In this document: in pieces, positions 59,927 through 60,372 of the stretch
How the letters are laid out: each line of letters begins with the position of its first letter
How positions within the stretch are numbered: position 1 is the stretch's first letter
Assembly: GCA_964016885.1 (NCBI GenBank)
Contig: OZ024740.1
Span: forward strand, 327,112,001-327,176,000
Direction of reading: 5' to 3'
From: Eledone cirrhosa
Lineage: Eukaryota
Length of the DNA: 64,000 nucleotides
Made by a program: the position numbers and the translations under genes
The notes under the pieces: generated by a model
Told to the model about the DNA's origin: nothing
Databases searched by the model: none
Seen by the model: only the letters and a program-made list of their open reading frames with translations

Positions 59927-60372
59927 TCATTGCTGTAGTGGAGTCTGTGCTGCTGTATGGGTCTGAGACTTGGACACTGACCGGGAGACTCGCTCAGATG
60001 GTGGATGGGTGCTGCGCGAGAATGCTGGGGATGGCTCTGAACATTAATCAGTATGCACTGAGGATGAAAAACTCAGAGCTGTATGGGAGCATCCCAAGGG
60101 TCGGCTCAGGAGTGACACGGGGGGGGGGGACTGAGGTTGGCTGGACATGCTCACCGACATCCAGAGTTGGCGTTGCACTCGGTGCTCCTTTGGGAGCCCC
60201 TACATGGACACACTAGAAGAGGAAGACCAAGGTTAACATATGTTGATGCCCTACGGACAGACACTGGTCTGTTGAAGATGCAGGATATGGCAGTGATAAT
60301 GAGGGACAGAGACCGCTGGAGAGAACTCGTCCATGGATCTCGGGAATTTTACCCGCCTTAGATAGATAGATA
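59927..60372 (+). mobile_element. RTE-clade LINE 3' fragment with A-to-G cluster and (TAGA)n tail
   Basis: Homologous to 34070-34421; AGHAHRHPE..LLWEP..RRGRP..M.DRDRWR. Confidence 0.88.

Follow-up and report, generated by a model that had tools for sequence, protein, structure and literature searches.

The 64,000-nucleotide stretch of Eledone cirrhosa DNA analysed here (the window) carries, at 59927..60371 on the plus strand, the 5′-truncated 3′ end of an RTE-like LINE. The element consists of the last ∼145 codons of a single open reading frame (ORF) followed by a short (TAGA)n tail, corresponds to the C-terminus of the intact 1037-aa ORF in the copy L126, and has C-terminal motifs that we take to be RTE-like. 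It is embedded in microsatellite DNA, and no target-site duplication of 7 nt or more is seen in these microsatellite flanks. The search covered the 3.0-Gb assembly (1,796 contigs); among the 40 scored of 1,581 first-look candidates, the closest other copies are 94% identical to the element, a level shared by many copies. A plasmid search gave no match.

A second member of the same family, copy B, lies at 34070..34421 on the minus strand and matches the window copy (59927-60371, plus strand). Copy B is unedited, carries other subfamily alleles and two internal deletions of 35 and 44 nt, and serves here as a comparison copy only. The initial annotation treated it as the sister of the window copy and described the 3′ half of the pair as showing ordinary mixed divergence; copy B is not a close sister, and most of that divergence is its own. 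The two copies are truncated at almost the same base (59927 and 34421, respectively), as are L026, L054, L055 and L073, a common point that possibly reflects a truncation hot spot or query bias. Other repeats are also present in the window. A different TA-tailed repeat, likewise abundant, has its 3′ end at 60435-60604, where it sits tail-to-tail with itself as a 150-bp palindrome, and recurs at 7689-7761 and 9170-9241. Two further retroelements have long open frames (518 aa and 792 aa) at 26458-30096 (minus strand) and 38556-40934 (plus strand), which look RT-like on inspection by eye.

The LINE family is young and comprises ∼10,000 copies in both orientations. An exact 22-nt 3′-end motif has 9,870 matches in the genome, of which 4,942 are forward and 4,928 reverse; reversing the motif as a control gives none genome-wide. 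The long copy L126 encodes a 1037-aa open frame that ends at the TA tail and contains an endonuclease domain (PF14529, residues 170-308) and an RT domain (PF00078, residues 597-832). Three traits of the RTE clade are thus present: a single ORF with an apurinic-type endonuclease followed by the RT (in L126), a short microsatellite 3′ tail ((TAGA)n or (TA)n), and 5′ truncation of most copies, with a median 5′ end at position 3181 of ∼3545. We call the family RTE-like on the basis of this architecture and the C-terminal motifs rather than of an RT phylogeny.

The window copy contains a hypermutated tract at 59983..60181, in which 18 of 64 A's are changed to G on the sense strand of the element and no T is changed to C. 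With the commonest base of each column among 29 other loci and copy B as the reference, the differences of the window copy are 18 A>G changes, a 4-G insertion and four other substitutions; by the same measure each of the 29 loci has 0–7 differences and copy B has 14. Against the 12 nearest relatives at each column the counts are 18 A>G, 0 T>C and three others, which bears out the sense-strand A>G cluster reported in the initial annotation. The changed sites are 59983, 59984, 59992, 60014, 60016, 60028, 60055, 60098, 60099, 60103, 60109, 60110, three within the G-run at 60119-60129 (nominally 60123, 60125 and 60128), 60170, 60172 and 60181. A subfamily-aware count removes 59987 as an inherited allele and adds 60098 as an extra change, so that the total stays at 18. 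Most of the ∼18 differences first listed stand; the three that fall are 59987, a subfamily allele, and 59961 and 60139, which are A's of copy B. Nor does the tract end at 60140, as first proposed: the sites at 60170, 60172 and 60181 lie beyond it, two of them in a stretch that copy B lacks. Downstream of the tract none of 50 A's is changed (p = 1.5 × 10−7). The window copy as a whole has one G>A change. If A>G arose at the background rate of the family, at least 17 changes in 121 A's would be expected with a probability of 1 × 10−14. The comparisons confirm that the window cluster is real and derived.

Through three of the A>G changes, a purine stretch of 7 bases has become G7, which together with four further G's forms a run of 11 G (60119..60129, plus strand). 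This run shifts the reading frame of the window copy, whose product would therefore be dead on arrival. In L241, the other copy with all three G7 changes (near 4050), the run is longer by 7, and in L252, with two of the three, its length is unaltered. The lengthening in both three-edit copies (+4 and +7) is due to slippage or to homopolymer error.

The ancestral base was polarised with four public runs from other samples, two of them raw RAD-seq read sets and two assembled contig sets. The resulting table gives 15 of the 18 nominal sites individually among the rows listed, with 60123 and 60125 left out, and A is the family base at the sites listed in the four runs. For example, A is found in 1668 of 1668 first-mate-plus reads of X9 at 59983, and in 2508 of 2509 in the plus-mate columns of X9 at 60172. 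The intact ORF likewise carries A at the edited positions. Partial matches to the window copy reach 95% and 89% at best, and no copy has the full G set. The initial annotation held that the G alleles are derived, and named a consensus carrying G as the outcome that would speak against this; the family carries A in both the assembly and the raw reads. No read with the G alleles of the window copy was seen, and no listed piece of the four runs spans the stretch. Among 11 runs listed, none of them RNA, the best contains a share of 0.14 of 21 sampled edited G words, about what unedited words would be expected to yield. As no run has the edited words, the G alleles of the window copy rest on the assembly alone. 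In an older subfamily (L037, L049, L172 and L192), G is the allele at several sites around element positions 3294-3301 and further on; these G's are either ancestral or descended from a lightly edited source.

Eight further copies have A>G tracts of their own, giving nine in total, with 14–46 A>G against 0–4 T>C on the sense strand of the element and insertions on both genomic strands. The scan of the family for strand-biased A>G clusters that the initial annotation called for thus turned up more copies with strand-specific tracts, and an ADAR-like context. Eight of the nine were found by looking for G's, namely the window copy itself and seven from G-carrying queries; L241, L242, L243 and L133 came from searches with the edited stretch and are biased toward shared G's. 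For an unbiased sample, the initial 100 occurrences of the 3′ motif along contig 1 were used, with overlaps merged and short pieces dropped; this yielded 97 loci, 130 aligned pieces, 98 3′-anchored copies and 66,367 aligned bases. One of the 97 loci, L225/L231, contains a tract, defined as at least eight changes of one type in 200 nt and twice all others, and its type is A>G: within 1.77 kb there are 40 A>G changes and not a single T>C, and over 3.15 kb the figures are 46 and 4. The L231 tract is dense at 2072-2996 and sparse across the remaining 2.2 kb. Pure tracts of the other 11 change types, including the APOBEC-type G>A, are absent from the 97 unbiased loci. The rate of 1 in 98 copies (95% interval 0.03–5.6%) puts the hyper-edited share of the family, very roughly, at 1%.

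Additional copies were sought genome-wide with degenerate patterns that specify two changed A's at a palindromic spot, with matched T patterns as a control. The A-pair patterns gave four and five matches and the matched T-pair patterns none; double transitions are expected by chance ∼0.6 and 0.3 times, by a hand calculation. As counts these numbers are weak, and they matter because all of the matches except L251 are full tracts. Those found in this way include L252, L253 and L256, with 19, 16 and 14 A>G and 1, 0 and 0 T>C, respectively. L251 was rejected as an ordinary old copy with AA>TT, and L032, L005, L037, L049, L172 and L192 were rejected as hyper-edited copies for having few G's or subfamily G's.

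Tract positions vary from copy to copy (2072-2996, 2689-3038, 3091-3469, 3123-3236, 3169-3363 and 3200-3341). The nine copies have hot sites in common, and their edit sets overlap partly without being nested, so a single edited master element is rejected. Any two of them have at most one other private change in common, and they differ in subfamily alleles and in their load of other mutations. The partial overlap, the few common private changes and the differing alleles together indicate independent events across the life of the family. There is no sign of selection in the form of synonymous-site enrichment among the changes: 34 of 197 are synonymous, compared with 313 of 1418 available (p = 0.095).

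The neighbours of the changed A's were examined in the nine copies pooled, where 195 of 751 tract A's are changed. By 5′ neighbour the changed fractions are 37/89 after T (0.42), 64/176 after A (0.36), 47/191 after C (0.25) and 47/295 after G (0.16; p = 2.9 × 10−7). ADARs prefer 5′ neighbours in the order U>A>C>G, with UAG as the optimum; here TAG is the most often changed triplet (10/18), and GAA and GAT are the least (4/57 each). The signal persists without the query-selected columns (128/591 changed, p = 3.2 × 10−5) and in two stretches found free of selection, where 11 of 121 A's after G are changed (p = 1 × 10−4). The pooled 5′ context is ADAR-like. The window copy alone has no significant context, with 4 of 22 A's changed after G and 14 of 42 otherwise (p = 0.25); the 5′ G avoidance that the initial annotation saw in this copy is accordingly significant in the pool of nine and not in the single copy. 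By 3′ neighbour, 83/244 A's are changed before G (0.34), 46/176 before A (0.26), 39/175 before C and 27/156 before T. The preference for 3′ G is significant overall (p = 7 × 10−4) and has p = 0.13 in the selection-free part. Upstream G depletion is a feature common to animal ADARs, according to the accessible part of a survey of hyper-editing, which also describes A as favoured downstream in invertebrates, octopus included (PMC5625713). The 3′ G preference seen here does not match the downstream A in that part of the survey, and the normalisation may differ.

The copy L242 dates the changes relative to integration. L242 has a 5′ inversion, a layout that presumably reflects twin priming: element positions 2549-2934 are inverted and joined to 2955-3545. 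All private changes of the inverted arm are A>G (17 sites), and its part adjoining the junction is unchanged; the forward arm contains 11 A>G at 2963-3038 and four at 3284-3296. Read on the genomic plus strand, the 17 sites of one arm are A>G and the 11 near the junction in the other are T>C; in RNA coordinates they form one tract, from 2689 to 3038, that crosses the breakpoint. That the arms were changed on opposite genomic strands places the change before integration. Alteration of the template, either before it was copied or in the course of copying, gives this pattern; a process that acts on the locus or on its transcript would not. The two arms (L242:2381-3355) also differ in other mutations, with 0/386 against 17/589 (p = 2 × 10−4, the lowest of 62 inverted copies), and this unexplained difference casts some doubt on a single insertion. 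L219 has a weaker arm difference (0/416 against 8/362). In the unbiased loci (L141-L240), 26 of 98 3′-anchored copies adjoin an inverted 5′ piece in the twin-priming layout; to our knowledge this is a high rate for a non-L1 element.

A milder A>G excess extends through the unbiased sample. With L231 removed, A>G exceeds T>C (10.3 against 6.8 per 1,000, p = 0.0012), G>A and C>T have a mild skew (19.3 against 15.7, p = 0.02), and the transversion pairs are even. When the age of each piece was taken from changes other than those of the A>G/T>C test, the excess lay in the 57 youngest pieces (A>G 68/9,137 against T>C 17/7,150, or 7.4 against 2.4 per 1,000, p = 5 × 10−6), and the 72 older pieces had none (p = 0.42). 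The young A>G changes favour a 5′ T or A (p = 5 × 10−4; p = 0.04 for the strictly private ones), a preference not seen for the T>C control in the same young pieces. This excess may represent light editing or the error spectrum of the RT itself.

The best explanation of the tracts, to which we assign a probability of about 84%, is that LINE RNA hyper-edited by ADAR was retrotransposed, and that the A>G tracts are its footprint from before integration. We infer deamination by ADAR from the type, strand, clustering and neighbours of the changes. Several traits of such a footprint are present: the changes are of a single type, clustered, and start from an ancestral A; the sense-strand bias holds in nine copies and in both arms of L242; and 5′ G depletion appears on pooling. 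A sense transcript would likely pair over a few hundred bases with antisense RNA of another copy, a putative partner, and within this duplex ADAR would then likely deaminate one A in four. That inosine is read as G in target-primed reverse transcription is established chemistry. Such reverse transcription of the edited RNA, stopping early, would yield a 5′-truncated copy with the changes fixed, and both the truncation and the A>G changes are observed in the window copy. Hyper-editing followed by integration would have recurred independently, in very roughly 1% of copies. The initial annotation had proposed that a hyper-edited transcript was reverse-transcribed and integrated; the evidence supports this, with the inverted copy L242 placing the change before integration.

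The genome encodes ADAR-family deaminase domains (PF02137) at four places, and one of these domains is ADAR2-like (E = 7.6 × 10−80 to PDB 1zy7, human ADAR2, with the CHAE motif). The locus L257-L258 (C6:13644405-13646174) has an ADAR2-like deaminase domain in only two pieces, unlike the many-exon ADAR loci on C1 and C25, with a partial match on C1 at 320.7 Mb. As for the source of the duplex, self-folding RNA is unsupported, as the 3′-terminal 996 nt of the intact copy are no more stably folded than shuffles (z = +0.7). Copy B was rejected as the pairing partner, with two edits lying in a deletion of copy B and an RNA source that need not be local. Antisense copies of the family are abundant. 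Given the unremarkable self-fold and the varying tract positions, antisense RNA from thousands of truncated copies is the likely second strand. At L141:1480-2676, two element 3′ ends joined in opposite orientation would form a ∼280 bp hairpin if transcribed; such a joined pair is a candidate type of ADAR substrate.

A burst of A>G errors by the LINE RT or in second-strand synthesis, due for example to nucleotide imbalance and requiring no deaminase, would predict the same strand, the same timing before integration and the same behaviour across the inversion, and the diffuse excess in young copies could be a polymerase spectrum. We nevertheless consider it unlikely, as the tracts are bounded within one copy (in L231, and in the window copy with its 0/50 A's downstream), the neighbour order of 5′ T>A>C>G with TAG at the top is that of ADAR, and 26% of the A's are changed. 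Polymerase error rates lie far below this figure. Mutation after integration, either at the DNA level (polymerase-eta-like A>G at WA, or adenine deamination) or through edited local transcripts written back, would have to act on the element sense of nine copies in either genomic orientation and on opposite genomic strands in the two arms of L242. It would also leave unexplained the high rates at sites after C (0.25) and G (0.16), and the two edits of the window copy that correspond to a deletion in the nearby inverted copy B. These points make it highly unlikely, even though 5′ A and T neighbours are favoured, as they are by polymerase eta, and the 3′ end of the TA-tailed repeat seen at 60435-60604 lies within 300 nt downstream in 3 of the 9 hypermutated copies as opposed to 2 of 115 controls. 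The latter association is post hoc (p = 0.003) and hints at a local effect.

An artefact of assembly or polishing, such as the use of RNA reads in polishing or a G-ward bias in base calling, has a slimmer chance still. In its favour, the 11 runs listed yielded no raw read of the G haplotype, the length of the G-run could be a homopolymer error, and mismatch clusters arising from sequencing error are documented in the accessible text of PMC2873906. However, an artefact would follow the strand of the read or transcript rather than the element sense in nine copies and both inversion arms, it would not be expected to produce a neighbour bias and bounded tracts, and the remainder of each copy is ordinary. 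The idea that the G's mark an older or separate subfamily, or that the A's are the derived state, draws on the G at 59987, which is a subfamily allele, and on the several nearby G's of the older subfamily (L037 and L049). It has next to no chance of being correct: the G set occurs in no other copy, the intact ORF has A, and the reads have mostly A.

The reading of the tracts as retrotransposed, ADAR-edited RNA has a broader extension, that ADAR is a standing germline mutagen of this LINE family, with ∼1% of the ∼10,000 copies hyper-edited and the young A>G excess due to light editing. We regard the odds on this extension as even. If it is true, the family preserves a fossil record of germline RNA editing that can be dated, and RNA edits have a working path into inherited DNA, one that also creates new G homopolymers. 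Edits to RNA are not normally passed on. If edited LINE RNAs integrate, this would mean that the RNA of mobile elements is a catalytic target of ADAR in the germ line and that such edits can be converted into DNA. From these copies one would then obtain a DNA-only readout of ADAR sequence preference and of the places where LINE RNA is double-stranded, across subfamily ages. Edited copies would also mislead the dating of repeats and the assignment of subfamilies. The same test, a scan for sense-strand A>G tracts, can be applied to the LINEs, SINEs and processed pseudogenes of any assembly, where inverted copies provide an internal control.

Several known systems resemble parts of this picture. 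The RTE-clade LINE RTE-2_OV of Octopus vulgaris is described, in the available part of its report, as an expressed element of 1109 aa with a zinc finger and ∼600-nt UTRs (PMC9115989). It shares with this family one ORF with endonuclease and RT and a microsatellite 3′ end, and the 1037-aa open frame of L126, which ends at the tail, sets it apart from RTE-2_OV as described there. ADAR1 restriction of LINE-1 is characterised as editing-independent in work cited in the accessible parts of PMC12925331 and PMC5974252. ADAR is in contact with LINE RNA there and would be here, and the footprint reported here would imply catalytic editing of the integrating RNA. A-to-I hyper-editing of animal repeat RNA is strongest in octopus and frog, as far as the available text goes (PMC5625713). 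That editing resembles the tracts in its dense A>G clusters in repeats and its upstream G depletion; it consists, in the same text, of RNA-versus-DNA mismatches that are unfixed in DNA and have a downstream A, whereas the tracts have a downstream G.

A literature search covering titles and the starts of abstracts found no description of LINE copies with fixed ADAR footprints. The closest parallels concern other enzymes or other elements. APOBEC ‘DNA editing’ of LTR retrotransposons is fixed in vertebrate genomes, and the accessible portions of these studies describe a filter that required G-to-A rather than A-to-G changes and the use of invertebrates as a negative control (PMC4866542; PMC2873906). 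The likeness lies in strand-biased clusters of a single type, polarised against the family and with a neighbour motif; as described there, APOBEC produces G>A by cytidine deamination of cDNA in vertebrate LTR elements, whereas in this LINE the changes are A>G. Two avian retroviruses are known to have ADAR-type A>G marks, according to the part of the report available (PMC12925331). Those marks and the tracts in this LINE are both clustered A>G changes at a large share of A's, and both involve an RNA that passes through reverse transcription. The avian cases, as that part presents them, are exogenous LTR retroviruses; here the marks lie in a non-LTR element in a genome assembly and recur in nine or more copies that differ in subfamily and age. 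Judged from sequence, what appears to be new relative to the avian ADAR marks and the vertebrate APOBEC marks is the occurrence of A>G tracts in copies of a LINE.
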